DNA of 64,000 bases from a virus, in the IMG/VR virus record IMGVR_UViG_3300025030_000053, positions 41,767 through 105,766 of that record, one strand, 5' to 3'. A program made the position numbers and the translations under genes. The notes beneath the pieces are model-generated. The model was not told the DNA's origin. It saw only the letters and a list, made by a program, of their open reading frames with translations, and did no database searches. Shown in pieces: positions 15,030 through 52,876 of this stretch. The stretch's first letter is position 1, and each line of letters opens with the position of its first letter.

Positions 15030-15329
15030 TTATATTAGAATCCCATCTACAACTTCTTGCCTATAAACTTCTAAATCTTCTATGCCGCCGGGAAAATCTC
15101 GATGAATCCTTGGTTCTGCAAGAGGGTCCTTGATAGTCATCATCAAACAAACATCTTTTGAGGGAGGATCTTCTGGTTTGTCGTATTGGGTTTTGATTTC
15201 TGCACCATTCTTCCAAGTTTGCACTACTGCTGTCTCCCACGCTTCAGGCAATGTATCTGCCACAACGTGTAGGACTGGCAACGTCAAACCAGGTACGCAA
15301 AAATATACTGCTTCATTTTTTGTTTTCAT
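15030..15329 (-). pseudogene. N-terminal fragment of an archaeal-type ThyA-family thymidylate synthase
   Basis: TLPEAWETAVV..TQYDKPEDPPSKD..PLAEPRIHRDFPGGIEDLEVYRQEVVDGI then stop; catalytic part not found in the window. Confidence 0.65.
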
Positions 15330-15666
15330 TGTATTTTTCTGTCAGCCAAATATCGTGTTCTTGGTCAAATTTTTTACATTTAATTTCATCAGCATATATA
15401 GTATGCATCAATGTATCTATAAATTCTGATGACATAAGATATTCTTTTAATTCTTCTTCTGTACTCAAATATTTAATATCCATAGATACTATCCAACTTT
15501 TACATTTTGGATCGTATTTGGCTATCGCCATTCCAGGAGCGATTCCACCAGTGAAATATTTATTAATCATTCTAACAATATATTCTCTGCACTTATATGG
15601 TTTATTGGTATCAACTAATTTATTATCTTTTCTGCTCGAAACTCTATATTCTTCAAATACATTCAT
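15313..15666 (-). CDS. Hypothetical protein
   Basis: 117 aa, RBS AGGAG. Confidence 0.6.
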   Translation of the reverse strand: MNVFEEYRVSSRKDNKLVDTNKPYKCREYIVRMINKYFTGGIAPGMAIAKYDPKCKSWIVSMDIKYLSTEEELKEYLMSSEFIDTLMHTIYADEIKCKKFDQEHDIWLTEKYNENKK

Positions 15667-15676
15667 TTCATTTCTC

Positions 15677-16195
15677 CTAATTCTGTTTCAAAAGTTTCAC
15701 TTTTGGCTGCTCTCTAATTTCCTCAACTTCTTCTTCCTCCTCAGTTTCCTGTCCTGGAAGAGCCATCTTTTCAGAAACCTCATCTGAAAGCAATTCTGGA
15801 AGAACATTCCCAATGTCTGCTTCTAATTCCCAATTCCATCCAAGCAACTCAAACACACAGGAATGCCCAACAATGTCTGGTTTTATTTTTGCTATTTGTA
15901 GCAATGATTCAAAAACTTTCCATTCTTTCTTCTGTTTTGACCAGGAATCCCATTTTTCATCCCACACTGCTAAACAAAACAACTTCTTGGTGTGTTTTTG
16001 CACCCATTGTTTGGAATTTTTGTCAATATACACATCTTGTGAATTTTTCGGTTTATTTCCAGCAATCAACGCACACCATATATCACTAGGATCCACATAT
16101 TCTTCACCCATAGAACTTCCATATTTTTGAGTGATTTCTTCAAGGATGTCAGCCATTTCAGTACATTCGTAAAATTGTCTTTGTTGTCGAGCCAT
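15677..16195 (-). CDS. Putative phage metallopeptidase-like protein lacking HExxH; acidic tail
   Basis: FCLAVWDEKWDSWSKQKKEWKVFESLLQI..KPDI resembles the phage metallopeptidase core with HELxH replaced. Confidence 0.45.
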   Translation of the reverse strand: MARQQRQFYECTEMADILEEITQKYGSSMGEEYVDPSDIWCALIAGNKPKNSQDVYIDKNSKQWVQKHTKKLFCLAVWDEKWDSWSKQKKEWKVFESLLQIAKIKPDIVGHSCVFELLGWNWELEADIGNVLPELLSDEVSEKMALPGQETEEEEEVEEIREQPKVKLLKQN

Positions 16196-21000: not shown

Positions 21001-23075
21001 TGAGATAATGCAAGGTTTATTAGATTTTTAATTTTTTTATGTTTATAAGAAGCATTTTTGCCCAATTCTTGCCAACATCTAATTATTTCGTTCAGAATTT
21101 GATCATTAGATTTAGACCCGGACAGCATTGACGCCACTTTCTGTTCCTCATTCACTTTCCAATCGATGAATTCTTCAATTTCTGGATGATCAATGTCCAA
21201 ACTTACCATCTTCGCAGATCTTCTCGTATTAAATACAGCTATGCCAGATCCAGATATCTCAGAGGTAGACCAGATTACGAAATTATGCCCACTTTGTGGA
21301 CTTTTGTCATCTGGCGTTTCGCACTCAACCTCAATATCATATACCGGCATAATTCCTATATTTTCTACAGAAATTACTTTATGATTATTTTTATATACTT
21401 CTTTGACAAAATTATTATAATTTCCAAAATTATTATTTATTTTCTCTTTTAATTGTTTAATAGATCCTATTCTTCCAATAACTATTTTTCGTCCATAAAC
21501 ATATTCTTCAAATTCATTAATAGAATATCCACTATTTATTATTTTATATGCAAGATTCATCATTTTAAACTTTATAGATTCTTTTTGCATATCCGTGGAT
21601 CTACAGGAAGATATTAAAATTTTAGATTGTTTTTCTTTAAATTTATGAACTCTATTAGTATCTTTCCAAAATTTTGAAGATTTATGCATTCCATTATTTT
21701 CACCACTATGGTCAAATTTAATCATTTGAAATGTATGTTTACCCTCTTTAGATAAGCCCAATCCGTGCAATCGTGCATGCTGAGATTGTGTCATAATTTC
21801 AAAATTAGACGGATGATTATTGTATATGTTGCCATCTTTATGGTGAATAATTTTTCCATCAAGTTCAATACCCATAAGATCTCTGGCAACCATTCGGTGC
21901 CAATCTTCTTTACCAGAAAATCCATCTCTTCTTTCTATCCTAGCATATCCATCTTTGCGTTTGTTCATATGGCAAGCAAATAAAGAATTTCCAGGAATCA
22001 AATTACCAGCTAATACCATTTTCCCATCAGACAATTTTACCGGATGATCAAATGATAATTCGAATTGACCTTTATCTGTAATAATTCTGACTACTTCTTT
22101 TTCTCCCGAGTACCATGCTTCAGCCCATTTGGCCTTATATCGTTTTGCTGGAGGATCATAACTAATGACAACAAATTTATTTTTTTGATCAGATAATGTT
22201 TTAATCGGAATTGGACCTTTTTCAGTATAAACCATCTGATGCCCAGGCAAACAAGCCCCTCCGGATTTTACAGCATCTGCCGATCTATCAAAAATTTTCA
22301 AAAATGACATTACTCCTGAAGATGTTCCCCCAGAAGATAATTTTTCTCCACGACCACGCAAGGCAGAAACATTCATTCCGTTGCCACTACCAGTCCGAAA
22401 TATTTTTGCTTCACTAACTAAAGTGTCATAAATACTTTTTTCACCGAACATAGAATCTTTAATTTCAGATACAAAACACGCGTGTGCCGCTGCTCGACAA
22501 ATAGAATCATCTTTGTCCTCAAGTGTATGCACGATTCTGCCATGTTTCTCTGAAAAATAAAAATATTCTGCATCTTGGTGTTCAATTCCGTAAGCCCATC
22601 CCAAGCCAGTATTGAAAAACTGAGGAGAATTAGGAGCGGCAATCTGGTTGATCAAAATGTAGCACAATTCATCGTAGAACACATTTGCGTCCTCCTCTAA
22701 TTTGATATAACCAGTCTTGATCATCCAATACGTCCAAGTACCTGCCAAACGATGAGCCACCTGCTTCAATGAATTCTCACGCCCGAATACGCACCCTTCA
22801 GCAGGAATGCTGCGATAGAATTTTGGGAAAATGCCTTCTTCTGGCACAGGAATGGTTTCTGATGGAACCCTTGCTCTTTTGAAATATTTATTGGAAAGAA
22901 TTGATGTTGCTACAGATTCCCAAAAAACAGGGACTTCAACAGAATCCTGTTCAAAAATATAATTTCCATTGTCTTCTTTTATTTCTACTATTCTTTCTTC
23001 CCACTCCACCATATCAAAAGGCGACAAAGATCCATCGGTATAATAACGAACGAAATTCATGTACTTGCTCCTCAA
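18018..23075 (-). CDS. nrdJ: Class II (B12-dependent) ribonucleotide reductase with two inteins and a C-terminal TSCPD/Zn-ribbon domain
   Basis: APNSPQFFNTG, ACFV, KSGG/TRRSAKM, NPC/SE, ACNLAS, LGLGY, APCGTIG, SKTIN, LYRDGCK, RRKLP..CPAC..CKRC. Confidence 0.95.
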   Translation of the reverse strand: MRSKYMNFVRYYTDGSLSPFDMVEWEERIVEIKEDNGNYIFEQDSVEVPVFWESVATSILSNKYFKRARVPSETIPVPEEGIFPKFYRSIPAEGCVFGRENSLKQVAHRLAGTWTYWMIKTGYIKLEEDANVFYDELCYILINQIAAPNSPQFFNTGLGWAYGIEHQDAEYFYFSEKHGRIVHTLEDKDDSICRAAAHACFVSEIKDSMFGEKSIYDTLVSEAKIFRTGSGNGMNVSALRGRGEKLSSGGTSSGVMSFLKIFDRSADAVKSGGACLPGHQMVYTEKGPIPIKTLSDQKNKFVVISYDPPAKRYKAKWAEAWYSGEKEVVRIITDKGQFELSFDHPVKLSDGKMVLAGNLIPGNSLFACHMNKRKDGYARIERRDGFSGKEDWHRMVARDLMGIELDGKIIHHKDGNIYNNHPSNFEIMTQSQHARLHGLGLSKEGKHTFQMIKFDHSGENNGMHKSSKFWKDTNRVHKFKEKQSKILISSCRSTDMQKESIKFKMMNLAYKIINSGYSINEFEEYVYGRKIVIGRIGSIKQLKEKINNNFGNYNNFVKEVYKNNHKVISVENIGIMPVYDIEVECETPDDKSPQSGHNFVIWSTSEISGSGIAVFNTRRSAKMVSLDIDHPEIEEFIDWKVNEEQKVASMLSGSKSNDQILNEIIRCWQELGKNASYKHKKIKNLINLALSHNIEINYIKRAIDIAKQGKNKMEFIQLTNDFNDEAYHTISGQNSNNSICITDNFLNSVKKNSEWNLTNRTDGKIYKTIDANLLWNKLCYSAWLSADPGVHYKDTMNSWNTCLNDGEIHATNPCFTGDTRIATPDGLITIEELVKKSYLGIMTEVYTKGGVVSRPVAYMYTGVNDVYKITLSDGREIKCTENHNWYINGEKIQTKNLKIGMPISLFSDISIKDNKSKLIDNLQNNIQLDSKYFNLNNEYEIIDFDDEKECRLAQKIIDCFNKKTIIIKENNKYKLRNFNNQIVIQSIEYSGKEDTYNLTEPINNLVYANGILISQCSEFVWLDSSACNLASIRLTKFFDEKNGKFDLKQFRHVVHLMTSVLEMTIESALLPTPAIAKGVEDYRTLGLGYTDIGALMMLQGIPYDSDRSRAWIGVLTAILTGESYMTSIEMAKEKIPFNRYEANQEHMIRIIRNHRRATYNSKIDEYEMLNVPPMGIDPNFCPEYLLNYAQKVWDKVLSEGEKYGFRNAQTTLLAPCGTIGLLMSCDTTGIEPDFSLVKHKKLAGGGYIKIVNRMVSKALLKLGYTSEQIDDIEKYIVGHGQLPDFGLDEESLLELMSEEQLANIEDSLPSLSHISQSFNTHTLGREYCIEIGIPEEQLYSMDIGKQILKSMGFTDKEVEQANIYICGNQTIEGAPHVKEEHYPVFDCAVPAGNGNRYIHHNAHIKALAAAQSFLSGASSKTINLFEDATIEDVENCYWLAHDLGVKCVALYRDGCKLSQPLNTLSKSVEFLTDLNQSIEVEEKNIFVAQRRKLPNKRFGQTHEFQIGPFGGPYHKIFLRTGEYEDGTLGEIFIDYAEEDAATRTALGALGRSVSIGLQHGVPQEEYFSMLRSIAQDPSGQVLHPNVKIAKSIYDVIGKIGSYEYDNDVNAVEVSSVEKIEQVKKIYAEEIESVDFSVSNEIIRISSKEKPSLEQCPACGSLDMVKEKSCVLRCKRCNFSSGSCGQ
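20031..20636 (-). mobile_element. Intein 2 in nrdJ (202 aa mini-intein ending in Gln)
   Basis: NP|CFTGDTRIATPDG...CTENH...TYNLTEP..ANGILISQ|CSE; splits the catalytic NPCxE motif. Confidence 0.9.
21228..22253 (-). mobile_element. Intein 1 in nrdJ (342 aa) carrying an HNH endonuclease
   Basis: GGA|CLPGHQMVYTEKG...SFDHPV...VYDIEV...IAVFN|TRR; internal HRMVA..IIHHKDGNIYNNHPSNFE..H. Confidence 0.9.
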
Positions 23076-23498
23076 TTAATCATTTTTAGACAATGATGTA
23101 ATTGTTTTCAATTTTTTTATAATTACTTTATTAATTTTTCTTTCAAAAATTCCAAGATATTTCAAATCGATTCCAGTGAATTGAAGTGCCATTTGTATTT
23201 CTCGCAGCATATATGCTGCAATCAGTATCACAAACATAGATACAATTAGAATCATCGCCTGAATGACTCCAAACATCCCTAAAATCAACGTAGTCAGGAT
23301 ACTCCCCCAAAAACGGCGAATAAAGATTCGCAAATCAAAGATGTCCTCCAATTCTGGATTCCTTTTTTTCATTATCTCTGAAAACAAAATATTCAACGAA
23401 GTACAAACAATATTTAACATCAATACAGAGTAGCATAGTAAAAATGATAAACTTGATAAAACTTCTAAATATTGACTGATAAATTCATTCATCTTCAA
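23076..23498 (-). CDS. Membrane protein
   Basis: Two to three hydrophobic segments. Confidence 0.6.
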   Translation of the reverse strand: MKMNEFISQYLEVLSSLSFLLCYSVLMLNIVCTSLNILFSEIMKKRNPELEDIFDLRIFIRRFWGSILTTLILGMFGVIQAMILIVSMFVILIAAYMLREIQMALQFTGIDLKYLGIFERKINKVIIKKLKTITSLSKND

Positions 23499-23737
23499 TT
23501 CTCATAATCATATCTTCTAATATATTTAAGTTGATCAATGGGGTTTGATCTCCTTTTTTGAGCATTTTTTATTACTTCTATGATGAATCTGTCATCAAGT
23601 TGCACGTCGTCATTGTGCTCAATCTCATACCTTTTTTTCATAGCCGCAGAATATAAAATTTCCATTATATTATTCGAGGGGGCATTTAATATTTCTTTTT
23701 CAAAATCTGACCAAAGTCTGCTAAGTCTCATTCTCAA
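23495..23737 (-). CDS. Hypothetical protein
   Basis: 80 aa, RBS GGAG. Confidence 0.55.
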   Translation of the reverse strand: MRMRLSRLWSDFEKEILNAPSNNIMEILYSAAMKKRYEIEHNDDVQLDDRFIIEVIKNAQKRRSNPIDQLKYIRRYDYEN

Positions 23738-23821
23738 TCTCCATTATCTTTGAAAGATAGTCTATATTAGATATAATTTGATTATAAAACCTATATCAAA
23801 TATATTGTTTATTGGTAAATT

Positions 23822-23834
23822 TTCTATATAATAT
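23822..23834 (+). promoter_or_regulatory. Extended -10 motif TTCTATATAATAT (also on minus strand at 8573..8585 and 17975..17987)
   Basis: Identical 13-mer just upstream of three gene starts. Confidence 0.65.
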
Positions 23835-23851
23835 AGAAGGAGATCAAACAA

Positions 23852-24472
23852 ATGACATATGAACAACCGCCAATACTTATGGTAAAAGGCGCCAAAGCAG
23901 GAGACAACTATATATCTAATCTATCCAGAACTACTTCCAAAATGATTGAAGATTTTGGATATGTAGAAATGCAATCTGTTGGACCACCTTCTATCAATAA
24001 CATGATCAAAGCTTATATCAAATCAAAAAATAATTTGTTTATGAGCGACAACAGCCTGAGACTGATTTGCCAATTCGCTTATCAAAAACCATCAATTGAC
24101 GACAAGATCAGGACTGCAATCCGTGGTAAATTTTTTCCAGTAAATTCTAAAATAATAATGACTCCGAAATCAGACTGCCCCATTCTTCTAGCAAAGGGGG
24201 CTGGAGCAGAGTCGAACTATATCAAATCATTATCAAATGCTATGATTCAATCATTAGATGAATATAATTGCTCACAAATTCAATCAATAGGACCAGTAGC
24301 AATTAGTAACATCATAAAATCATACATCAAGGCAAAAGGATTGATATCTGAGTACACAAATGGATTATCACTAGTGTCTCAATTTTCCTTTCATAAACCA
24401 GAAATCAATGGTGAAGTAATCACAGCAATTAGAGCCAGTATTTTTGCTATAGAAGATAAATATGTTATATAG
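23852..24472 (+). CDS. spoVS: Tandem (double) SpoVS-family protein
   Basis: Two repeats, VEMQSVGPPSINNMIKA..LICQFAY..IDDKIRTAIR and SQIQSIGPVAISNIIKS..LVSQFSF..INGEVITAIR, match SpoVS (EIQAIGAGALNQAVKA..LICIPAF..IDGEERTAIK). Confidence 0.8.
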   Translation: MTYEQPPILMVKGAKAGDNYISNLSRTTSKMIEDFGYVEMQSVGPPSINNMIKAYIKSKNNLFMSDNSLRLICQFAYQKPSIDDKIRTAIRGKFFPVNSKIIMTPKSDCPILLAKGAGAESNYIKSLSNAMIQSLDEYNCSQIQSIGPVAISNIIKSYIKAKGLISEYTNGLSLVSQFSFHKPEINGEVITAIRASIFAIEDKYVI

Positions 24473-24532
24473 TTTTTTTCCTATTGAATTCGATTCCCAA
24501 TATGAATATTATATATCGGGAATGGAGTCTAT

Positions 24533-25477
24533 ATGAAATGTCAAAATGCAGAAGAGGCTATTGAAAAATATCAAGAAGCAAAAAATAGCAACAACTTTTC
24601 CGAAGCAGAAATATGGTATGAAGAAATACTAACTCATTATAATCCTATAAATTACAGAAATGTATGGTGGAGAAAATACGGATGGTTATATAATTTTGAA
24701 ACTAATGATTTTAATAGTGATTATATTATAAAATTTATAGATTGTTTGAACAAATTCAAATCAAAAGATTCAAAGGGTAATTATAGAAATATAAATAATT
24801 ACTTTTTTTCAGCAATCAAAAATATGTATTCTGCGATGATTTACAACATCAATAAATCAGATAATAATCCAAAAATTAGATGTCCTGCTTGTGGAAAGAT
24901 AATCAAAAATGCTTATTTGCACATCAAAGAAGAACACAATGATATTCTGTGGGAAAAAATAACAGAATTGGGAATATCTGAGCAAAGCTTTGAAAAAGGA
25001 TGTCCTATTTGCCCGCATTACCTGCCTCGAAAACAATGTAAAACTACTGATAAAAATAAAATACTAGATCATGTATTAAAGATTCATTCTTCATTACTAT
25101 TTGAAAAATTTAAAGAATTATATCCAGGAAATTATTTAGAATGCAAAGATATAATTAATATTTCAGATTTAACATCTCTATCCGAAGATGAACAAGATTT
25201 TCTAGAATTTATAGAAAATAAAAATGAAATTTCAGATATGTCTAAATCAGTATCGGTAGAAAATTTTATTTCATCAGATAAAACTGAAATAGAAAAATAT
25301 ATTGTAGATTATATTTTTGATGCAAGATTGTCATCCATAGACGACGGAAAGATGAACCATAGAAAAATAAATAAATGGCTTGAAAAATGTAATATAAATC
25401 TTTCAATATCTAAAAAAGAATATGATTTATCTATCGAGTCATTGAAATGCAAGTTGATTGAATCTGGAATATTTTAA
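24533..25477 (+). CDS. Divergent sigma-like protein with two C2H2 zinc fingers
   Basis: Region-2-like DFNSDYIIKFIDCLNKF..INNYFFSAIKN; CPACG..HIKEEH; CPICP..HVLKIH. Confidence 0.45.
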   Translation: MKCQNAEEAIEKYQEAKNSNNFSEAEIWYEEILTHYNPINYRNVWWRKYGWLYNFETNDFNSDYIIKFIDCLNKFKSKDSKGNYRNINNYFFSAIKNMYSAMIYNINKSDNNPKIRCPACGKIIKNAYLHIKEEHNDILWEKITELGISEQSFEKGCPICPHYLPRKQCKTTDKNKILDHVLKIHSSLLFEKFKELYPGNYLECKDIINISDLTSLSEDEQDFLEFIENKNEISDMSKSVSVENFISSDKTEIEKYIVDYIFDARLSSIDDGKMNHRKINKWLEKCNINLSISKKEYDLSIESLKCKLIESGIF

Positions 25478-26517
25478 TATGTTATAAGATTCACTATAGC
25501 ATCAAAAATATTAGTAGATCTGTCCCAGCAAATACTATTGTATTCACAATAATAGCACCCAAAGCAATCTGCGCGGTTTGCCCATCCTGGCTTTGCTGGA
25601 ATTCTCAATTTTCCATCATTAGAATCTTCTATCATTTCCCAAAGTTTTTTACAAGCAGAATGGATGCTATCAACTAAAAATTGATTTTTATAAATAATTA
25701 AATCACAAACAATCTGATTGTCTTTGTTTTCATACCAAAATATAGTTTGATCAACACCAACTGCATCCATGTATGCGTTGGCTTGAATTACATGTTTCTT
25801 CTGAGGAATAGCTAATTCATAATGATATTCCATCAAATGTTCTGCCATCGATTTGCCGAATCTCATCCTTTCGCCGCACACATGGCAGATTTTATCATCT
25901 GACATATCCGATACATATTGATTTTTTAGTTCTGAGTTATAGAACAATCTTGTAAAACCTTTTGTATTTATTGATTTAATTTCTAAGATTGACGGAATCC
26001 CATTTTCAGTAATTATTCCATCAATATGCCCGCATAAATGTATATCTGATATTTCGAATGGAACTTCTGATAAATAAAATTCATCTCCAATTTTTAATTC
26101 TGAAATATTATTTTTTATTTTGTTTTTAGTAGTCCAAACCTGATCTTTATTGTTAAACGGATATCTTCTTCCAGATTCTCCATATATAGTAGTCTTGCTG
26201 TTATATATTTGTTTTTCATTTTTTGTGTTAAAAGATACTAATGATTTTTCTTCTTTGATGTCTATTATTTTATCTGTCATCATCAATTCGGAATCTTTAA
26301 AATACTTCTGAATTCTATCATGAGTATGATGCCCATTATCAAATATAACTAGTACATTGTCTTTGATGTCATCATCTCCTGGAATTGACATGGTTTGGAA
26401 ATAGGTTGCACGCGGGCAACCTCCGATGCTACTTGGATGAAAATGAGAATAATCTCTATCATCTGATTTGTTTCTATTTCGTAGCATATTATATATTTGT
26501 CTTCTTGACTCCGTCAT
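25474..26517 (-). CDS. Cas4-like PD-(D/E)xK exonuclease
   Basis: HPSSIGGCPR, GHHTH, GHIDG, LEIKS, QANAYM, CxxCxYxxxC; not CRISPR-associated here. Confidence 0.85.
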   Translation of the reverse strand: MTESRRQIYNMLRNRNKSDDRDYSHFHPSSIGGCPRATYFQTMSIPGDDDIKDNVLVIFDNGHHTHDRIQKYFKDSELMMTDKIIDIKEEKSLVSFNTKNEKQIYNSKTTIYGESGRRYPFNNKDQVWTTKNKIKNNISELKIGDEFYLSEVPFEISDIHLCGHIDGIITENGIPSILEIKSINTKGFTRLFYNSELKNQYVSDMSDDKICHVCGERMRFGKSMAEHLMEYHYELAIPQKKHVIQANAYMDAVGVDQTIFWYENKDNQIVCDLIIYKNQFLVDSIHSACKKLWEMIEDSNDGKLRIPAKPGWANRADCFGCYYCEYNSICWDRSTNIFDAIVNLITY

Positions 26518-27263
26518 AAAATTATTTCCTTTTCTTTGTTTTTTATTTTATCAATTATTATTTTATTAATATCTGTATTGTTTGTTCTAATGAAATCTTC
26601 TGGATCTTGATTATCTGGCAGCCTGAAATGATAAATATTTTTTGTATATAATGATAGCATTTCTTCAATTTTGACTCTGGCTTTATCTCCAGATTCATCT
26701 CTATCAGACATAATTACAATAGTATCTGTATATCTCAACAACAAAGCAATATGATGATAGCTGAAAACCTGAGAACCGCAAGTGGCGACGCAATTTCTTA
26801 TACCATGATCATACATAGAAATGACATCCAAATTTCCTTCAACTATGATTACATAATTATTGTCTAATATATTTTTTTTATTAACATTGAGACCAAATAA
26901 ATTTTTAGATTTTTCGTATGGTTCATTTATCCATTTAGCTTTATCCCAATGATAGAAGATATCTAAACCCTTTTCATATTCTTTCAAAAGAAAACTCAAT
27001 ACTTTTTCTGAATCTTGATCAATTTTTCTTCCAAAAAATGACAATAAATTTCCATACACATCGTAGCAAGGAATAATAATTCTTCCCTTCAAAAATGGGA
27101 AAGGTCTATATTGGACGTGTGGCGGACAATATCCGATTTGCCAAGTATATATAGTATCTTCCGAGAATGGTCTAGATTGTATGAAATTTATTTGATTTAT
27201 TCCCTCGTCTTTATCAAAGAGTGCTGCTGTAAATAATTTGGATAGTTTCTGTTTGTCAATCAT
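26514..27263 (-). CDS. dnaG: DNA primase catalytic core (TOPRIM) without zinc-binding domain
   Basis: GRIIIP..FFGR, KSKNLFGL, IVEGNLDV, VATCG, SDRDESG, QDPED. Confidence 0.9.
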   Translation of the reverse strand: MIDKQKLSKLFTAALFDKDEGINQINFIQSRPFSEDTIYTWQIGYCPPHVQYRPFPFLKGRIIIPCYDVYGNLLSFFGRKIDQDSEKVLSFLLKEYEKGLDIFYHWDKAKWINEPYEKSKNLFGLNVNKKNILDNNYVIIVEGNLDVISMYDHGIRNCVATCGSQVFSYHHIALLLRYTDTIVIMSDRDESGDKARVKIEEMLSLYTKNIYHFRLPDNQDPEDFIRTNNTDINKIIIDKIKNKEKEIIL

Positions 27264-35817: not shown

Positions 35818-36198
35818 TTAAGCTTCTATGTCAATTGACAGATCTTCATCATAATCTATTTTTTCATCAATTATGTTCATTATTTTTTGTCTAATTAGTC
35901 CCAATTCATATGTCTTTAAAAATATTCCAGTATTAATCAAATAATATATTAATTCTTCTTCTGTCAATCCAAGCAAAGTGCAATATATAGTAGAAATATG
36001 TTCAAATCTCAACAATTGCAGACCTGAAAATTCTATATTTACATTGATTTCTTTTTTATTTTTTAAAATATTTTTGTTGTTTTTTATTTCTTCAAGTTTG
36101 TTTTCAATATTTGCGTATTCTTTTTTGAGCCCATCGGGGTCTGAAAGAATTTTCTTTTTTTGTTTTTCAACTTTTTTAATAATTTGATCTAAATTCAT
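35818..36198 (-). CDS. Hypothetical protein
   Basis: 126 aa ORF in operon. Confidence 0.6.
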   Translation of the reverse strand: MNLDQIIKKVEKQKKKILSDPDGLKKEYANIENKLEEIKNNKNILKNKKEINVNIEFSGLQLLRFEHISTIYCTLLGLTEEELIYYLINTGIFLKTYELGLIRQKIMNIIDEKIDYDEDLSIDIEA

Positions 36199-36893
36199 TT
36201 TGTCTCCATTGCCAATTTATATGAATCATACAGATGTTTGGTCAGTAGATCTCTTTTCTCCGATACGCTCATAGCCATCATTTTTTGTCCGTTGGAAAGA
36301 TCTGTTGTATCAAAAGTTCTTCCTGGTCTCAGGCAAAATGACGGATGAAATGTTGCACAATATTTTGTATCTAAATTCAAAGCTTTGATGTTCCAATCAA
36401 AAATCTTTCCATATACATTTGAAATCCTTTCATCAGATTTGAAAATATATTTCAATGGTTGACCTCCTAATCCTACAACAATCTTTGGGCGAACAATAGC
36501 TATTTGTTTTCTTGCCCATTTGATACACACATCAACGCATTTATGAACGTCATCTCCTTGTGGGAATTTGTTTCTAGGCGGGCGGCAGTTGATCACATTG
36601 GCTATATATAACATCTCTGGGTCTGCTTCAATTTCTTCCAGACACTCCCTCAACAAAGAACCAGCCTTGCCCACAAATGGTTTATTTTTAACGACTTCAT
36701 CTGCTCCTGGGGCTTCTCCAAAAATCATCATTACAGCTTGATCGCTTCCGATCCCGGGGACTGGATTGCCGTATTCTGCATTTATTTCATCGGGTATCAG
36801 ATTCCTTAATCTTTCATTTTCCTGACGAAGAGGACACATGTCGCAATTAAAAATTTCTTTTCGAATATTTTTTATTTGTTCATTTTTTTTCAT
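36195..36893 (-). CDS. Uracil-DNA glycosylase, family 4 (Fe-S)
   Basis: CDMCPL, FGEAPG..E, PFVGKAG, NVINCRPP.N, FHPS. Confidence 0.92.
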   Translation of the reverse strand: MKKNEQIKNIRKEIFNCDMCPLRQENERLRNLIPDEINAEYGNPVPGIGSDQAVMMIFGEAPGADEVVKNKPFVGKAGSLLRECLEEIEADPEMLYIANVINCRPPRNKFPQGDDVHKCVDVCIKWARKQIAIVRPKIVVGLGGQPLKYIFKSDERISNVYGKIFDWNIKALNLDTKYCATFHPSFCLRPGRTFDTTDLSNGQKMMAMSVSEKRDLLTKHLYDSYKLAMETK

Positions 36894-41593: not shown

Positions 41594-41846
41594 TAAAATC
41601 TTCTTCTGACACGATCTTTTTTATTTCATCTAATCCTTCTTGGAGTTCTTTTGTCCATTGTGATATATTTTTTTCAATATCTTTGATAGAAATTCCAAGT
41701 TCAGATTCTAATTTTTTCAATAATTCATTTTTTTGCAATAACATTTGTTGCTTTTCACCCTCCAACCTATCTATTTTGGATTGCGCATTCTTGGCAACTT
41801 GTTTATATTTTTTTATTTCATCAAAGAAAATATTTATATCATTCAT
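41586..41846 (-). CDS. Small coiled-coil protein inside the SbcCD cluster
   Basis: 86 aa heptad-rich sequence. Confidence 0.65.
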   Translation of the reverse strand: MNDINIFFDEIKKYKQVAKNAQSKIDRLEGEKQQMLLQKNELLKKLESELGISIKDIEKNISQWTKELQEGLDEIKKIVSEEDFNE

Positions 41847-44839: not shown

Positions 44840-44879
44840 TTTTTATTCTCCAAAGAAATAATAGTTTGGGAGTGATATT

Positions 44880-45086
44880 ATGTCAAAAGTATTGAAAAAA
44901 ATTGTAGATTATGAAATTGCTATGGATTTGATCAATGATTTGAGAGCAAAAATAAAAATAAATCCAACTATGGAAGATTATGACGATTTGTTGCAATGTT
45001 GGAATAGACTATATGAATATATGTCGACTGCCCCAGTAGAACAAACAGGAGCGTCACTCCCCAGGATACTCACCGCTCGGCGATGA
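44880..45086 (+). CDS. Small hypothetical protein under a SigH-type promoter
   Basis: RBS GGAG; AGGC-N17-GAAA at 44834..44858. Confidence 0.6.
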   Translation: MSKVLKKIVDYEIAMDLINDLRAKIKINPTMEDYDDLLQCWNRLYEYMSTAPVEQTGASLPRILTARR

Positions 45087-46198: not shown

Positions 46199-46261
46199 TA
46201 AAAAGGTTTCAAGGATATTATATTAGAATTAAACTTCAAATATCAAATTTTGGAGAGTAAA

Positions 46262-46714
46262 ATGGAAAATGAATTATTGGGATTTCAAAAAGAATATTGG
46301 CGAGCATTGACATTCAACAACAAGCAAGAAGCAGATGATATAGAAAAAAGATGGGAGAAGCATTCAAAAAAGCAATTAGACTTGTTGAAAAAAGAAGCAC
46401 AATTAAAAATTATTGAAGATATTTATGATAATATAAATTATTTAGATAGTTTAGCGTATGCTAATGATAATAATTCTAATTGGAATGATTATCTGGAATT
46501 TTTAAAAGAATCTAAAAATAACAGAGAAATTATAACCAAATTTGCATCTAATTCTGATTATATCTATGGCAAAAAGTTTGTTGTATCTAATAAACTTTTT
46601 GAAGAAAAAATGATGACATTAGAAAATCCAGTAATTGAATTCAAAATTTTAAGAAATAGTTTAAAAGATTTTCAATCAGAACTAGAATCGGAAATTTCTT
46701 CACCGACTTCATAG
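46262..46714 (+). CDS. Hypothetical protein with K-x-A motifs under a SigH-type promoter
   Basis: ATG 46262 with RBS GGAG; AGGT-N18-GAAT at 46204..46229; LKKEAQ, ITKFAS. Confidence 0.6.
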   Translation: MENELLGFQKEYWRALTFNNKQEADDIEKRWEKHSKKQLDLLKKEAQLKIIEDIYDNINYLDSLAYANDNNSNWNDYLEFLKESKNNREIITKFASNSDYIYGKKFVVSNKLFEEKMMTLENPVIEFKILRNSLKDFQSELESEISSPTS

Positions 46715-46953: not shown

Positions 46954-47461
46954 TGTTGGCCTTTCTAATAATTATATTTTGATCATCAACCCTGTCGCCA
47001 TTTGAAATTTCATTAGGCATCACACCACTAATTATCACTTTGTCGTTCTCATTGATATTTCTAGGGACTATATTCGTAGATATATAAAATATTTTATTTT
47101 TTTGTTTAATCAAAGTGTATTTGTCATCTATTTTTTTGACATGTGCTATTGACTTATTATTGGATTCTTTTTCAAAGAACTCTTTTTTATTGATGTAGTT
47201 GCAAGACAAGCATCTAATTAAATTTATATCTAATTTGTTGAATTTAATATTTCTTGATATATACTTGTTTAATTTCTTGTTGAAAATAATTTCTGATATA
47301 AAATCTTTGGAATCAATCCAGAATGCAAAAAAATTGTTATTTATATTTGTCCCACAATTTGGACAAACTATTTCTATTTTTTCTATCGCCTCTCCTACTG
47401 GAGAATAATTAGATGCCATCGGAAAAAGGACTTCTGAATTTTTTGAAGAATTTATTTTCAT
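46943..47461 (-). CDS. Zinc-ribbon protein
   Basis: CPNCG...CLSC. Confidence 0.55.
   Translation of the reverse strand: MKINSSKNSEVLFPMASNYSPVGEAIEKIEIVCPNCGTNINNNFFAFWIDSKDFISEIIFNKKLNKYISRNIKFNKLDINLIRCLSCNYINKKEFFEKESNNKSIAHVKKIDDKYTLIKQKNKIFYISTNIVPRNINENDKVIISGVMPNEISNGDRVDDQNIIIRKANNDE
47427..47451 (+). promoter_or_regulatory. SigH-type promoter AGGA-N17-GAAT
   Basis: aaAGGActtctgaattttttgaaGAAT upstream of the HD gene. Confidence 0.7.
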
Positions 47462-47484
47462 AGTTTAGGAGAGTACTCTTATCA

Positions 47485-48522
47485 ATGACAACTTTCAACT
47501 GGCTAAAAATGGCATCTGAGGAAATAAAAAACCAAGCAAACGGAATTTCAGACTTTGAAGGACACCAATGGCGCGATATCGGTGCTGATGAACTTCAAAA
47601 TTTGAAGCATAAATTTGACTGGATGAATGAATATTACTCTGATGAAGAAGAAATTCCACACGATACTCCATACCACCAAGAGAGTTTAATTGAACACATA
47701 CGACAAGTATCACAACAAATCAAAAATTTTCGAGCCTACCCAAACAATCCGCTCCTGGCTGATTTACTAGCAATTGCTGGAATTTTTCACGATCATTGGA
47801 AAATCAGAACCAGGGCGCCAAAAACAAGATTCATTTGTCCAGATTGCAACTATCCAAACACCAAATCAGAAGAACCTTGCAAAAATTGCGGCAGCGAATC
47901 TTCCAAACAAGAAAAAGAAGTAATGGGATATCACGGACACGAGGAATTAGGATCTAGAAGTGAAAATCTTTTTCCAAGACTAGAATCTATTGGTGTTCCT
48001 AGACAATATTGGGAGATTGTCCAATTTTTAGTCAGAAATCATCTAGCAATTCACGATCTAATTGAAACTCTCGCCCACAATGATCAATTATCTGAAAAAC
48101 AAATTTCAAGATGGTCAAAAATGTTCAGCAACAAAGTTGGAATACCATTGGAAGATATGATCAGAATGTCTATCATTTTGTCAATGGCTGACAATTTGGG
48201 TAGAATCACTCAATTGCCATCAAAATACACAATGAAAGATTTATCAAGGGGTAAAGTCCAAGAAACTCAATTACTGGCTATTGCTGATTTGATGACCGCA
48301 GTTGTAGTCAAAGCAATTCAAGGAAATAATGTTTCTAAAAAATCAAAACCTGATATTTCTAAAACATTCACACCAGAACAAATTCAAAGAATAGACAGGA
48401 TTCTTGATCAAGTTGGAATCAGTCTATTTGATACCGAAGCAACTGATAGAAACAAATTATTCAATCTGCTTTCAAGACTTGGAATGAAAAGATTGATTCA
48501 AGAAATTTTAAAAGTACTATAA
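47485..48522 (+). CDS. HD-domain phosphohydrolase with inserted zinc ribbon and NWLKMA leader
   Basis: HDTPYHQE..EH, FHDHWK, CPDC..CKNC, YHGHEELG, RNH, ADNLGR. Confidence 0.85.
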   Translation: MTTFNWLKMASEEIKNQANGISDFEGHQWRDIGADELQNLKHKFDWMNEYYSDEEEIPHDTPYHQESLIEHIRQVSQQIKNFRAYPNNPLLADLLAIAGIFHDHWKIRTRAPKTRFICPDCNYPNTKSEEPCKNCGSESSKQEKEVMGYHGHEELGSRSENLFPRLESIGVPRQYWEIVQFLVRNHLAIHDLIETLAHNDQLSEKQISRWSKMFSNKVGIPLEDMIRMSIILSMADNLGRITQLPSKYTMKDLSRGKVQETQLLAIADLMTAVVVKAIQGNNVSKKSKPDISKTFTPEQIQRIDRILDQVGISLFDTEATDRNKLFNLLSRLGMKRLIQEILKVL

Positions 48523-49839
48523 AGTTTTACCATCATTTTTTGGTATCAATATATTTTCTGATATTTTTTCTATTGTTCTTTCAAGATTGGAATATTCTGA
48601 TCCAAGAATTTGAACATCAAACATTGTCATCGCCAAAGATTTCTCTAATGACGGCATCTTCATCACTTCATCAGAAGTAGCAAATTCTTTTTTGAAATTT
48701 CTAACTAATTGATTGTTTAATTCTCCAATTTGTCTTATTCTATTTGAATATTCTTGTTTCCATTGATTGATAATTTTTTGAATTATCTGAATCATTTCTG
48801 ATATTTTTTCTTTTCTTTGAATGTAAATGTCAAACCATTTTTTAGATTGTTCAATAATTTCATAATCATATTCATTTTCTTGCATTGCGTCTTTGAAATC
48901 TTGTTTTGAAATTAAAAATTGTTCTGATTCTTTTGATTTCTTTTCGCAAATCTCAACTAGAACCTTGTATGTAAATTTAGAATGCATCCTGTGCATTGCC
49001 AGATATTTTGGCCCCTTGATTTTTGTCATCAAAGGCTCATCTGGATGTCGGACCACTACACCCTCATCTTCCCATTCTCCAGATTCTTCCATTTCTGTGA
49101 TTATTTTTTTGATTTGTTTCGGACCAGCAGCCGAATTCAACTTTTCAACAATTGAAACCAAATTCAGACCAGAGTTTCTGGCAATTTCTTGCAACTGGCT
49201 CCACGGCAACATTTGTTCAGATTCTTTTTCTCTGGCGTGGATGAAGACTAAATCTGATTCTGGATATTTGATCACAGAATCATTATCTGGACCTACATAT
49301 TCAAAATACATTTCCATATCTGGACTGAAATTTGGGTCCAGAACCTTTGGATAGGCTGTTTCAAATTTTTCAACAACTGAATATCTCCACGCACCAAGAA
49401 GAGTAATCAATTGGTCAGAAGATCCTTGATCAACAGATATCGCCCCACGAGTGCGAAGAATCACAACACCTTTGAAAACAGACCTAATGATCAAAACTCC
49501 ATCTTCTTTTTTGGTGATTATTCCTCTTTTCTGTTTGATTGCATCTGAAATTTTCTGATCCCAGGATTGTAGTTTTCCAGACTCATCCAATTGCTCTCCG
49601 TAATTCATAAATTTATTCAGACCACGAGAAACAGGAATGAAATTTGGTAATTCATAGATTACCGATCTTTCTGTCATCTCATCTGGTAAATAAAAATATT
49701 TATCCTTCTCTGGCACCAAATGCACCCAATTTGGATGTCCAGCCACAGAACGCAATTTGAACCCTCTGGAACGAACCTCTTCGGGGTTCTTGATCCAATC
49801 TGGTACCGATGCTAATTTTATTGTTTTGAACTTAGACAT
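48517..49839 (-). CDS. RNA ligase 1 (T4 Rnl1 family)
   Basis: RGLNKFMNYGE, motif I KEDG, RTRG, FEYVGPDN..VIKY, EGVVV, KIKGPKY. Confidence 0.88.
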   Translation of the reverse strand: MSKFKTIKLASVPDWIKNPEEVRSRGFKLRSVAGHPNWVHLVPEKDKYFYLPDEMTERSVIYELPNFIPVSRGLNKFMNYGEQLDESGKLQSWDQKISDAIKQKRGIITKKEDGVLIIRSVFKGVVILRTRGAISVDQGSSDQLITLLGAWRYSVVEKFETAYPKVLDPNFSPDMEMYFEYVGPDNDSVIKYPESDLVFIHAREKESEQMLPWSQLQEIARNSGLNLVSIVEKLNSAAGPKQIKKIITEMEESGEWEDEGVVVRHPDEPLMTKIKGPKYLAMHRMHSKFTYKVLVEICEKKSKESEQFLISKQDFKDAMQENEYDYEIIEQSKKWFDIYIQRKEKISEMIQIIQKIINQWKQEYSNRIRQIGELNNQLVRNFKKEFATSDEVMKMPSLEKSLAMTMFDVQILGSEYSNLERTIEKISENILIPKNDGKTL

Positions 49840-49871
49840 ATCATTTGTTTATATCATCAAAAAACAGAATT

Positions 49872-50024
49872 CTATTTATCTATCCACATCAATACTAATC
49901 CAATAACCATAATAATTGATCCTGCTACAATTAATCCAGGATCCCCATTACCACCAACATACTTCAAAAAAGGTACAAAAGCAACAATCATAGTTAAACT
50001 GGTCCATAATAATTTAGTTCCAAT
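49872..50024 (-). CDS. 50-aa two-helix membrane protein with probable ATT start (not in ORF track)
   Basis: (M)GTKLLWTSLTMIVAFVPFLKYVGGNGDPGLIVAGSIIMVIGLVLMWIDK; GAGG 7 nt upstream; AGGT-N18-TAAA at 50044..50069. Confidence 0.6.
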   Translation of the reverse strand: MGTKLLWTSLTMIVAFVPFLKYVGGNGDPGLIVAGSIIMVIGLVLMWIDK

Positions 50025-50139
50025 ATTTTTTCCTCTGATTAAATTTAACTATATTTGTTGGAATTACCTCTTTCGTTTGAATGAAAATTATAGTAGGAAA
50101 ATCTACTATTTAGATATAATATATAGGAAAGGAGCAAAT

Positions 50140-50349
50140 GTGTCAAAATTTAAAATTAGAAAAGAAATCAGACGATCATTTGATATGATGAAATATAGTG
50201 GATTCACATACTATCAGAGTCTATCAATTATATCATTGATTTATTCAATCAGTCTAGCGTTGAAGGAATTAGAGAATCCGCTTGAGATAATCAATGAAGT
50301 TGCCAAGGAGGTCTATGACATCGGAGAAGAAGATGAATCAGAAGAATAA
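50140..50349 (+). CDS. Hypothetical protein
   Basis: GTG start after AAGGAG; TATAATAT upstream. Confidence 0.55.
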   Translation: MSKFKIRKEIRRSFDMMKYSGFTYYQSLSIISLIYSISLALKELENPLEIINEVAKEVYDIGEEDESEE

Positions 50350-51271
50350 AATTCTTGTCATAGGTGATTTGATGATTGATGAATATATCAATTGCGAGGT
50401 GAGCAGAATATCTCCTGAAGCACCAGTTCCTGTCGCAAAGATATTGAACAAAAAATATTCACTAGGCGGAGCTGCCAATGTTGCTTCGTCGTTGGCAATG
50501 TTTGAAGAAAATGATGTCAGATTCCTTTCTATATCTGCAAAAGAAAGGAATGGAAATCTTTTTGAAATGTTTGAACAAGAAAACATCTCAAAATTTTATG
50601 ATCTTCCATTCTTTCAAAACGACATCATCAAGACTAGGATTCTGTCGCACGGGCACCACATTGTCAGATTAGACACAGAATGTTTGGAACTGATAGATCC
50701 AGATGTAAATATCTATCTTCAACACTTGAATGGCATATTCAATTGGCAACCGGATCTGATAGTTATTTCTGATTATGACAAAGGAACTATAGATTTTATT
50801 CAAAATGATGTCAGTGATACGATTCAAGGATTGAATTGTCCTGTAATTGCAGATCTAAAACCAAAAAATTTCAGAGACTCAAAAATTATCTTTGGAAAAA
50901 CTCTTCATTCCATCCTTCCAAACAGAAAAGAATTTCTCGAAAGTGTGCCTGGAATGGAATACGAAAACATAATTCTTTTCTGGCAAGAATTTGAATTATG
51001 TGAAAACATCATAATTACCAAAAGTGAAGATGGTGTAGAGATAATCAACGACTCAGGTAGACAATCATTTCCATCACACGTCGTTGAAGTGAATGATGTC
51101 ACCGGCTGCGGAGATACGGTGACCGCAGTATATGCTCATTTAATTGCACAAAAAGAAAAACCAGAACAAGCAATTCAAATTGCCAATCGATGTGCAGGAA
51201 TTACTGCCTCTAAAATTGGAGTTCACAAGATCACTCGTGAAGAATTAGAAGCTTGTTCCGCCGACCTGTAA
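50333..51271 (+). CDS. rfaE: HldE/RfaE domain-I-like heptose-7-phosphate kinase (PfkB family)
   Basis: ILVIGDLMIDEY, RISPEAPVPV, GGAANVA, KTRI, ISDYDKG, PNRKE, DVTGCGDTV. Confidence 0.88.
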   Translation: MNQKNKILVIGDLMIDEYINCEVSRISPEAPVPVAKILNKKYSLGGAANVASSLAMFEENDVRFLSISAKERNGNLFEMFEQENISKFYDLPFFQNDIIKTRILSHGHHIVRLDTECLELIDPDVNIYLQHLNGIFNWQPDLIVISDYDKGTIDFIQNDVSDTIQGLNCPVIADLKPKNFRDSKIIFGKTLHSILPNRKEFLESVPGMEYENIILFWQEFELCENIIITKSEDGVEIINDSGRQSFPSHVVEVNDVTGCGDTVTAVYAHLIAQKEKPEQAIQIANRCAGITASKIGVHKITREELEACSADL

Positions 51272-51400: not shown

Positions 51401-52876
51401 ATGACGGGAAACTACACCAGCAACAATGACAGAAATATATATGCTATATACAATCTTCCAGAAGAAGTAATTGCAGTACTTTTTGCTTTTTATTCAAGAT
51501 CGAAAGGCTCATTGAGAGAAAACCTTCAAAAAATGATTAATGATGGAAATTTGTTTGATGAACCAAATTGGGTCGAAGTGAGATTGCAATTAGACGAACA
51601 AGTTAAAGAAAAACTGGACCAATGGCTCGAATTGAGGAAATTTGGGACAACAGAGCAGGCTAAAAATTTCCACGAAAAATGGGTTTTAAATTTTGGACAT
51701 GCCTCATGCGCTGAACACTCAATTATTCATCTTGCCATTGAAGAAGTTTCTATGCTTGCCGCCAAAGCCATCGAAGATTGTAGACTTGCTAGTTATACTG
51801 AAAAATCAACAAGATATGTAGTCTATGACAATATAGGATTCACAACTCCATCAGAATTATCTGGAATGTCAAAAGATATATACAAGGCAAATTGTCAAGA
51901 TTTGATAGATTTTTATTTAAAATCCCATTCAACTATGAGTGAAAAAATAAAATCACAAGATCCAGAATTGAAACCAGGGCAAGTTAGATCAAAAGCCTGT
52001 GATATTTGCAGGAATATTCTTCCAGTTTCAATGCATACCAATCTTGGAATGACCATCAATGCAAGAGTGCTAGTCAGAACCATAGTCAAAATGCTTTCAT
52101 CGAAAAATGAGGAATTCATCAGAGTGGCAAATCAAATGAAGGAAGAAGCACTGAAAGTTTGTCCAACGCTTCTGAAATATACTGACAAAAATGACTACAT
52201 CGAGAAGTTAGATGAAAAAATAAAAAAACACATCACAACAAATTCCATAGATGAACAATCAAAAGGAATTTTGAAGACAAACATCACAGAAGATGAGATG
52301 CTCCGCAAACTGGTTCAGTCTATTCTCCTGGAGCGCTCTCAGATGCCATACGATGCCGCAGAAAAAATTGCATGCAATTCTTCGGTAGAAACCTGCCAAA
52401 ACATCTTGCAACATTATTGTGAGGGTCGTAGCGCCCACGATGACCTTTTGAGAGTTTTTGAGCAGGTATATCTGACTCACGAAATTGTTGTTGATTTTGG
52501 TGCTTACAGAGATATTCAGAGACATCGTATGAATACCCAGATTTCTCAATTACTGACTCCCAAGCTGGGATATGTAGTGCCAGATGAATTCCAAGGAACA
52601 GACTTGGAATTAGATTTTGAAAACAAGATGAAACGATCGGAAAGGATATATTATCAAATATTGGTAAAAACAAATGATCCTAAAATTGCACAATATTGTT
52701 TGCCTATGGCTTTCAGAAAAAGAGTAATTTTCAATTGGAATCTGCGAGAAATGAGTCATTTTGTAAATTTGAGAAAAAGACCAACTGGACATAAAAACTA
52801 CATTGAAGTCGCCAAGCAGATAGAACAAAATTTTAATTCCAATTTCCCATTCATTGGAAATCTGGTTTTTGACTAG
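51401..52876 (+). CDS. thyX: FAD-dependent thymidylate synthase, long two-domain type
   Basis: YSRS, FGHASCAEH, EKSTRY, DICRNILP, NAR, RDIQRHR, AQYCLP, NLRE. Confidence 0.9.
   Translation: MTGNYTSNNDRNIYAIYNLPEEVIAVLFAFYSRSKGSLRENLQKMINDGNLFDEPNWVEVRLQLDEQVKEKLDQWLELRKFGTTEQAKNFHEKWVLNFGHASCAEHSIIHLAIEEVSMLAAKAIEDCRLASYTEKSTRYVVYDNIGFTTPSELSGMSKDIYKANCQDLIDFYLKSHSTMSEKIKSQDPELKPGQVRSKACDICRNILPVSMHTNLGMTINARVLVRTIVKMLSSKNEEFIRVANQMKEEALKVCPTLLKYTDKNDYIEKLDEKIKKHITTNSIDEQSKGILKTNITEDEMLRKLVQSILLERSQMPYDAAEKIACNSSVETCQNILQHYCEGRSAHDDLLRVFEQVYLTHEIVVDFGAYRDIQRHRMNTQISQLLTPKLGYVVPDEFQGTDLELDFENKMKRSERIYYQILVKTNDPKIAQYCLPMAFRKRVIFNWNLREMSHFVNLRKRPTGHKNYIEVAKQIEQNFNSNFPFIGNLVFD

Follow-up and report, generated by a model that had tools for sequence, protein, structure and literature searches.

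Phages are known to counter the anticodon nucleases and toxin RNases of their hosts with RNA-repair kits. In Runella slithyformis, an HD-Pnk protein joins an HD 2′,3′-phosphoesterase to a 5′-kinase and is encoded beside an overlapping ligase open reading frame (ORF) (PMC6097658). Sets of ligase, polynucleotide kinase, and phosphoesterase are common in jumbo phages (PMC7824862), and the end-healing phosphoesterases named in the passages considered are of the 2H, cRec, and HAD types. The Escherichia coli CCA enzyme's HD domain removes 2′,3′-cyclic phosphate from tRNA 3′ ends, as stated in PMC6961547, which cites Yakunin et al. 2004. Here I describe a gene pair encoding an Rnl1-type RNA ligase and an HD-fold protein in a 64,000-nucleotide stretch of viral DNA (positions 41,767 to 105,766 of IMG/VR record IMGVR_UViG_3300025030_000053), hereafter the window. 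It forms the final 64 kb of this record, a single linear sequence of 105,766 bp with a GC content of 35%. The source is a fragment of a huge phage, probably of the 300-kb-plus class, since the completeness of the 106-kb linear record was estimated by CheckV at about 30%. All absences from the record are therefore provisional. The evidence leans, if not strongly, towards the two proteins supplying two of the three activities of an intracellular heal-and-seal repair of RNA, most likely of tRNA.

An earlier note on this DNA had described a convergent gene pair overlapping by 6 nucleotides (nt), and this layout was confirmed. The elements of the pair are as follows (window positions).

47485..48522, plus strand: gene of the HD-fold protein, 345 amino acids (aa), convergent with the ligase gene.
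48517..49839, minus strand: gene of the ligase, 440 aa, convergent with the HD gene.
47467..47472, plus strand: AGGAGA ribosome-binding site of the HD gene, ending 12 nt 5′ of its ATG at 47485.
47497..47517, plus strand: codons for the N-W-L-K-M-A-S leader of the HD protein.
47836..47889, plus strand: Cys4 zinc-ribbon insert of the HD protein (C118, C121, C132, C135), placed after the HD helix and before the GYHGHE segment.

The overlap, CTATAA, consists of both stop codons read against each other. No intrinsic terminator was found between the two convergent genes.

The minus-strand gene had been taken for an Rnl1 ligase, and this identity is upheld by profile matches, by T4 Rnl1 as the nearest solved protein, and by the catalytic motifs. 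The protein matches PF09511 with an E-value of 3.9e-13 and 50.2 bits (gathering cut-off 28.3), and its residues 49-384 match phrog_562, "RNA ligase and tail fiber attachment catalyst," with an E-value of 5.4e-28. On the other hand, it scores 61.4 bits against an equivalog cut-off of 242.25 for TIGR02308. Thus, it is a predicted member of the family and not an equivalog of T4 RnlA. The only matches in the phage collection were T4-like RnlA genes, with 22-31% identity, and T4 Rnl1 was the sole solved sequence relative. In a Foldseek search with the predicted ligase structure, the top three matches were T4 Rnl1 structures over the full length (about 435 columns); the template modeling (TM) score was only 0.28-0.33 because the ligase model is poor. 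The ligase was aligned with four orthologues and an annotated T4-type RnlA (SP18). Motif I with the lysine to be adenylylated, K-x-D-G, was found as K111-E-D113-G114 (K111-x-D113-G114 in the alignment), while motifs III, IV, and V were found as E180 (in FEYVGP), E259-G260, and K273-I-K275 (K273-x-K275 in the alignment). These residues are invariant, as are the Rnl1-specific upstream residues R58 and K76-F77-x-N79. Towards the C-terminus, residues 290-430 are confidently helical within the poor model, and the phrog_562 and TIGR02308 alignments reach residues 379-384. Judged from its sequence, the ligase is a genuine but divergent Rnl1-family enzyme with all catalytic motifs.

The HD protein was harder to place. 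By itself it has no match in Pfam, PHROG, NCBIfam, or the PDB sequences, and its score with the Pfam HD profile (PF01966) is 13.2 bits, under the cut-off of 22. Only three relatives, with 35-40% identity, were found among 5.8 billion clustered proteins, and a search with the profile of the family found 22 representatives among 1.84 billion proteins. Some of the members lie above the Pfam HD cut-off: P0024 (33.6 bits), P0014 (29.5 bits), and a fusion protein on metagenome contig L009 (31.3 bits). Since the query lies under the cut-off and distant members lie over it, membership in the HD superfamily rests on transitive homology and on the fold. In an alignment of 21 sequences of the family, H64, H71, H102-D103, K106, and H152 are invariant, while E66, H186, and D236 are nearly so. 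The H...HD...D pattern of metal ligands is present as H71, H102-D103, and D236 on the helical model. The four cysteines of the zinc-ribbon insert are also near-invariant across the family.

The closest solved homologue is a class-II tRNA nucleotidyltransferase. The family profile matches the HD region of the enzyme 3wfo with an E-value of 3.3e-9. The alignment covers the HDxGK, (Y)xH, HHL, and (S)xAD segments and continues into the C-terminal tail; it skips profile positions 110-145, so that the zinc-ribbon insert has no counterpart there. The AlphaFold model of the HD protein matches residues 224-448 of 3wfo_A with a Z-score of 13.7, followed by the Arabidopsis CCA enzyme (Z 10.2) and then by HD hydrolases (Z 7-10). 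Among its structural neighbors in the Atlas are CCA enzymes with an HD domain and a polynucleotide-kinase family of AAA_33+HD architecture, and among its viral neighbors in BFVD are a "polyA polymerase" and AAA-HD phage proteins; these are leads only. Natural fusions of a CCA-type PolyA_pol head to this HD domain exist in P0023 and in an 876-aa ORF on contig L009. The head profile itself (PF01743) has no match in the HD protein or anywhere in the 106-kb record. Thus, the HD protein is predicted not to be a CCA-adding enzyme and to be homologous only to the HD and tail part of such enzymes. Nor does it contain a P-loop domain; it is not an HD-Pnk fusion. The most fitting description is that of a headless CCA enzyme, a body and tail into which a zinc ribbon has been inserted. 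The HD assignment of the earlier note was right in this more specific sense of a CCA-enzyme type of HD fold.

On contig L009 (Ga0209518_1003236; L009:1719-10930), the 876-aa PolyA_pol+HD fusion lies beside three genes of phosphatase or ribonucleotide reductase type. They encode a 724-aa Metallophos protein, a dual-specificity phosphatase, and the large subunit of a class I/II ribonucleotide reductase with a TSCPD domain. This region may be a further phage cluster for RNA-end processing.

A heal-and-seal pathway also needs a 5′ kinase. The earlier note had seen none in the window, and there is indeed none within the 64 kb. One was found elsewhere in the record, where the note had suggested looking.

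Genome 35986-36708, minus strand: stand-alone polynucleotide 5′-kinase, CthPnk-like, 5 kb upstream of the window, adjoining a Dam-family methyltransferase gene.

The kinase matches AAA_33 (E-value 3.6e-15) and PDB entry 4gp6 (E-value 1e-5), and its best solved relatives are structures of the Clostridium thermocellum Pnkp kinase domain. The aligned segments include the P-loop, the general base in S-x-D-x-x-R, and DAT. The homologies of the ligase, the CCA-type HD protein, and the kinase support the kind of enzymology that had been proposed, namely an Rnl1 ligase with an HD end-healing enzyme.

The most economical reading of the three genes is a three-enzyme heal-and-seal pathway, which would work in the following way. 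The HD protein would be a metal-dependent phosphoesterase derived from the HD and tail part of class-II tRNA nucleotidyltransferases, having lost the head and gained the Cys4 zinc ribbon. It would bind tRNA and strip the 2′,3′-cyclic phosphate or 3′-phosphate left by metal-independent host tRNases. The CthPnk-like kinase would phosphorylate the 5′-OH end, and the Rnl1-type ligase would seal the 3′-OH and 5′-PO4 ends in an ATP-dependent manner. Among HD lineages, the CCA type is the one for which a role in removing 2′,3′-cyclic phosphate from tRNA is documented (PMC6961547).

Are the two genes expressed together? The candidate promoters around the pair are as follows (window positions).

47427..47451, plus strand: AGGA-N17-GAAT promoter-like site of the HD gene, 33 nt 5′ of its ATG, of a phage-sigma or SigH-like class.
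49848..49873, minus strand: AGAA-N18-TAAA before the ligase gene, ending 9 nt 5′ of its ATG, not accepted as a promoter.
49872..49991, minus strand: putative small hydrophobic ORF, 39 aa, between the sigma-70-like promoter and the ligase gene.
50118..50146, minus strand: TTGACA-N17-TATATT, a near-consensus sigma-70-type site (11/12, the best of the region), upstream of the 39-aa ORF and the ligase gene.

The SigH-type promoter that had been reported for the HD gene is present, with the AGGAGA sequence between it and the ATG. The exact AGGA-N17-GAAT pattern is not enriched genome-wide (11 sites vs 8.3 expected). However, four of the 11 sites lie at most 80 nt upstream of a start on the same strand, where about 0.5 would be expected by chance according to my own estimate, and these four have T-rich spacers. 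One site directly precedes the gene of a 1407-aa head-protease polyprotein. Thus, the class plausibly depends on the phage's own sigma factor and includes late genes. The weaker ligase promoter of the earlier note did not hold up: the AGAA-N18-TAAA pattern exists but occurs at chance frequency, with 18 sites in the genome vs 16.8 ± 3.5 in shuffled sequences. Near-consensus sigma-70 sites (at least 11/12) are not enriched genome-wide either (7 vs about 6). Still, four of the seven fall within the 4.3% of the genome that is intergenic, where about 0.3 would be expected, and all four face minus-strand genes of the replication block. These 11/12 sites lie at the following window positions.

23750-23777, plus strand: intergenic sigma-70 site.
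44858-44886, minus strand: intergenic sigma-70 site.
46217-46246, minus strand: intergenic sigma-70 site.
50118-50146, minus strand: the site upstream of the ligase gene.

Since the ligase gene lies behind such a site, it is probably early, in a predicted host-type early unit, while the HD gene would be an opposite-strand insert with a putative phage-sigma-type promoter. The proposal that both genes are expressed late is contradicted by this arrangement, in which the ligase gene lies behind a sigma-70-type site and the HD gene behind AGGA-N17-GAAT. The plus-strand inserts of the replication block (44880-45086, 46250-46714, and the HD gene) are instead reported or were seen to have AGGA...GAAT-type sites; two promoter classes seem to be interleaved in the block, one on each strand. 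The 39-aa ORF may encode a membrane peptide co-transcribed with the ligase.

Both proteins had been said to share a K-x-A leader. The HD protein begins with MTTFNWLKMAS and the ligase with MSKFKTIKLAS. A loose motif, hydrophobic-K-x-A starting within the first 15 residues, was rejected as a signal, as it occurs at chance (five proteins vs 3.3 expected). Three proteins (the HD protein, the ligase, and a 701-aa protein) carry the tighter motif [LMI]K[FLIMV]A[QS] among their first 25 residues vs 0.06 in residue shuffles, and none of 2000 shuffles reached three. A motif with tryptophan, W[LM][KE]xA, is N-terminal in four of its five occurrences in the called proteins vs 0.24 expected, and it includes the HD protein and not the ligase. 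When alternative starts are counted, M-W-[LM]-[KE]-x-A stands at the N-terminus of six proteins that are otherwise unrelated, of which one is the HD protein, one is an SNF2 helicase, and four have no assigned function. The six genes with this W-leader start at the following positions.

Genome 9115, minus strand: W-leader gene.
Genome 37983, minus strand: W-leader gene.
Genome 39724, minus strand: W-leader gene.
Window 47485, plus strand: the HD gene.
Genome 101083 (window 59317), minus strand: W-leader gene.
Genome 104857 (window 63091), plus strand: W-leader gene.

An AGGA-N17/18-GAA[TGC] site lies at most 70 nt upstream of five of these six genes vs three of 105 others (Fisher p = 2.6e-6). 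The HD protein belongs to this W-leader and promoter class by both the leader and the promoter, and the ligase by neither. W6-L7-K8 is invariant in HD orthologues of only 35-40% overall identity, and distant full-length members of the family retain W-[LMI]-[KQ]-[FY]-[AM]. In several W-leader genes, the -10 element ends just 8-11 nt before the ATG. These genes may have near-leaderless mRNAs, and the start-site context may contribute to their shared 5′ codons. The HD gene is outside this pattern, as 48 nt separate its tag from the -10 element and a normal ribosome-binding site comes before the tag. Since, in addition, the W-leader genes differ in their codons and share no conserved upstream DNA, an origin of the HD leader at the DNA level alone was rejected.

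The leader of the ligase is another matter. It has no Trp, and three orthologues begin directly at the conserved (K/R)FPWF. In the MAFFT alignment, its KTIKLASVPD falls on the N-terminal helix that is native to T4-type RnlA; TIKLAS may thus be the native Rnl1 helix. On the other hand, the ligase of a sister lineage begins with MWFRKAMA, and a CCA-HD fusion begins with MWYEKTIKIAQ in the same register as MSKFKTIKLAS. The ligase N-terminus is ambiguous and may be a degenerate tag. Of the shared leader, the part that stands is the W-leader of the HD protein, which is real and conserved; the part that does not is its extension to the ligase through the loose motif. A scan of IMG/VR with a back-translated leader pattern gave four matches, about the number expected by chance by my own estimate, with none at an ORF start, and searching the literature for the leader string brought up nothing relevant.

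Several points weigh against the heal-and-seal pathway. The HD and ligase genes are convergent and hence form no operon, so that their adjacency is weaker evidence of a link than co-transcription would be. The kinase gene is 53 kb from the ligase gene. HD domains act on many substrates, and I entirely infer the one proposed here. In the close subfamily of the HD protein, HDHWK replaces HDxGK (H-W for G), which may mean a changed specificity. Of the structural models, that of the HD protein is moderate in quality (predicted local distance difference test score, pLDDT, 71.6) and that of the ligase is poor (pLDDT 64). Neither a tRNA gene nor a CCA head was found in the 106 kb of this roughly 30% complete record, and the IMG/VR and GTDB assemblies and the phage collection offered no relatives for a comparison of synteny. 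Would another function suit the HD protein better? It might serve the acceptor end of tRNA, clearing 2′,3′-cyclic phosphates or 3′-phosphates from truncated acceptor (CCA) ends, which the host CCA-adding enzyme could then rebuild, with the adjacency of the ligase gene only loosely meaningful. Its closest homologues are the HD and tail parts of tRNA nucleotidyltransferases, with a profile that runs into the tail of 3wfo; two independent fusions to CCA heads exist; a host partner would be needed, as the phage fragment has no CCA head; and exactly this role is documented for the CCA enzyme of E. coli and its HD domain (PMC6961547). I regard this alternative as unlikely, because it leaves the tight juxtaposition with an Rnl1 gene and the presence of a Pnk unexplained, and a phage CCA head may lie elsewhere, as the record is 30% complete. 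It is also compatible with the heal-and-seal pathway, since the same enzyme could heal both types of ends. Similarly unlikely is that the HD protein hydrolyzes nucleotides or second messengers, such as dNTPs or NTPs, (p)ppGpp, or cyclic-oligonucleotide defense signals, beside the ligase gene by coincidence. Structural neighbors at Z 7-9 include SAMHD1, GppA/PPX, Rel, HD-GYP, PgpH, and phosphodiesterases, the gene lies among nucleotide-metabolism genes (ThyX and a PfkB/HldE-like kinase), and a binuclear phosphodiesterase site would be compatible with the seven His/Asp/Glu positions that are conserved. However, these matches are clearly below that to the tRNA nucleotidyltransferase, which is the sole one with sequence-level support, and the fusion partners of the family are tRNA nucleotidyltransferase heads, with no signaling or nucleotide-metabolism domain among them.

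The earlier note had combined late expression with the leaders into a model in which both enzymes are targeted to the capsid by a protease-cleaved K-x-A leader and injected with the DNA ahead of host tRNases. T4 capsid-targeting sequences and P1 Dar proteins are precedents for such packaging, and the T4 tag ends in L/I-x-E. Several of the observations above fit the model: the HD promoter type also precedes the head-protease gene, the N-terminal W-L-K is invariant in HD orthologues, the W-leader co-occurs with the promoter in unrelated proteins, the tight motif is N-terminally enriched and present in both enzymes, and the sister-lineage ligase and the CCA-HD fusion have Trp-led N-termini. However, the ligase has neither the Trp nor the AGGA promoter and is probably early, its leader aligns with a native RnlA helix and is missing from three of its closest orthologues, and the loose K-x-A motif is no more frequent than expected by chance. 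Head-module proteins show no enrichment of the tight motif by my own count (6 of 26 occurrences vs about 6.5 expected), both genes lie inside the replication block, away from that module, and the start-site or leaderless context of several W-leader genes could partly explain their codons. Thus, delivery in the virion has no support in the case of the ligase and is speculation in that of the HD protein, and I consider the full model very unlikely. A narrower version is quite unlikely as well, namely that M-W-[LM]-[KE]-x-A is a capsid-addressing or other sorting signal by which the HD enzyme is packed and injected together with the SNF2 helicase and the proteins without an assigned function, and in sister lineages also with Rnl1; capsid targeting by the W-leader is conceivable because the head-protease gene has a promoter of the same class. 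The intracellular heal-and-seal pathway is kept as the best reading of the pair.

How widespread is the pair? The same HD and ligase proteins are present on a 138-kb contig. An HD orthologue (P0031) was found on a 55.8-kb contig, and ligase orthologues (P0034 and P0040) on contigs of 31-37 kb. No relatives came up when IMG/VR and GTDB genome contigs were scanned for both protein families, and the phage collection had no match to the region in a DNA search or to the HD protein in a protein search. A scan of a single metagenome found only a distant partial member (L008) and the CCA-HD fusion on L009.

The HD and ligase genes lie far from the head module, in a block of replication and nucleotide-metabolism genes with SbcC-like, ThyX, and PfkB/HldE-like kinase genes as neighbors. 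Two nearby ORFs of 1070 and 505 aa presumably encode relatives of PolIII-alpha and DnaB, as I take it from their N-termini. No tRNA gene was found in the 106-kb record, and most of its structural proteins match no PHROG family. Other features of the setting are as follows.

Window 10753-11616: phage sigma factor, with a Sigma70_r2 match.
Window 50294-51271, plus strand: PfkB-family kinase, near the HldE heptose-7-phosphate kinase domain (TIGR02198, E-value 1.4e-62, under the cut-off).
Window 51401-52876, plus strand: ThyX, unusually long (491 aa), with two Thy1 stretches.
Genome 15118-15978: major head protein.
Genome 19618-23841, minus strand, outside the window: 1407-aa protein with an N-terminal head-maturation-protease domain (phrog_18299, E-value 4e-17).
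Genome 23920-27177, minus strand, outside the window: portal protein (phrog_16240) with a LAGLIDADG-like insert and, at its C-terminus, an endonuclease-like domain (DUF559/MTES_1575).

The PfkB/HldE-like kinase and the long ThyX possibly take part in nucleotide-sugar or DNA-modification chemistry. In the 1407-aa protein, the motif [IL]-[KE]-hydrophobic-A occurs four times (residues 23, 489, 758, and 936); the protein may be a self-processing polyprotein. The inserts in the portal gene suggest invasion by an intein or a homing endonuclease.

Both the gene pair and its predicted enzymology hold up; within phage RNA repair, a kind of system already known, the HD member is new. The likely 3′ healer belongs to a very rare family (the 22 representatives among 1.84 billion proteins) and is invisible to Pfam. 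In the passages of PMC7824862 considered here, 3′-end healing in jumbo phages is assigned to HAD, 2H, or cRec enzymes. If the proposed function is true, the HD protein would add a new end-healing module to phage RNA repair and would be a natural case of the reuse of a tRNA-binding scaffold. If the HD enzyme were packed by means of its W-leader, this would be the first pre-packaged RNA-repair counter-defense. The association of the W-leader with the promoter is the most unusual observation of this study and reaches well past the coordinates of the HD and ligase genes. For a huge phage that is uncultured, it provides a concrete and testable lead on how proteins are sorted or start sites controlled.

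Compared with known systems, the phage genes follow the same pathway logic of kinase, 3′ healing, and sealing as T4 RnlA (Rnl1, gp63) and T4 Pnkp, which counter the PrrC anticodon nuclease. The ligase belongs to the Rnl1 family by Pfam and PHROG, has its best fold and sequence match in T4 RnlA, and shares all catalytic residues with it, while it differs in the low identity (22-30%) and in the TIGR02308 score (61.4 vs 242.25 bits). T4 Pnkp heals 3′ ends with a phosphatase domain of HAD type (DxDxT), whereas the phage described here would use an HD metalloenzyme. Its kinase, of the bacterial CthPnk type, is encoded on its own, and the three genes are dispersed.

The HD protein resembles the HD domain of class-II CCA enzymes (E. 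coli Cca; 3wfo) in the profile match (E-value 3.3e-9), in the fold (Z 13.7), and in the H..H/HDxGK/H/HHL/D pattern. Unlike these enzymes, it has neither a nucleotidyltransferase head nor a neck. Its HD helix is followed by an inserted Cys4 zinc ribbon of 36 residues, HDHWK stands for HDxGK in the close subfamily, and the W-leader has no counterpart there.

The HD-Pnk cluster of Runella slithyformis likewise combines an HD phosphoesterase, a P-loop 5′-kinase, and an ATP-dependent ligase with overlapping HD and ligase ORFs (PMC6097658). In the phage, however, the HD protein and the kinase are separate and encoded 53 kb apart, the overlap is tail-to-tail and not operonic, and the ligase is of the Rnl1 type. 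The likeness rests on activities and layout, and a family of AAA_33+HD architecture is among the structural neighbors of the phage HD protein.

Finally, the W-leader resembles the tags of the T4 capsid-targeting and P1 Dar systems in being a short N-terminal tag on unrelated proteins, with a promoter class that also serves the head-protease gene. It differs from the T4 tag in its motif, M-W-[LM]-[KE]-x-A, and its presence in the ligase is ambiguous.

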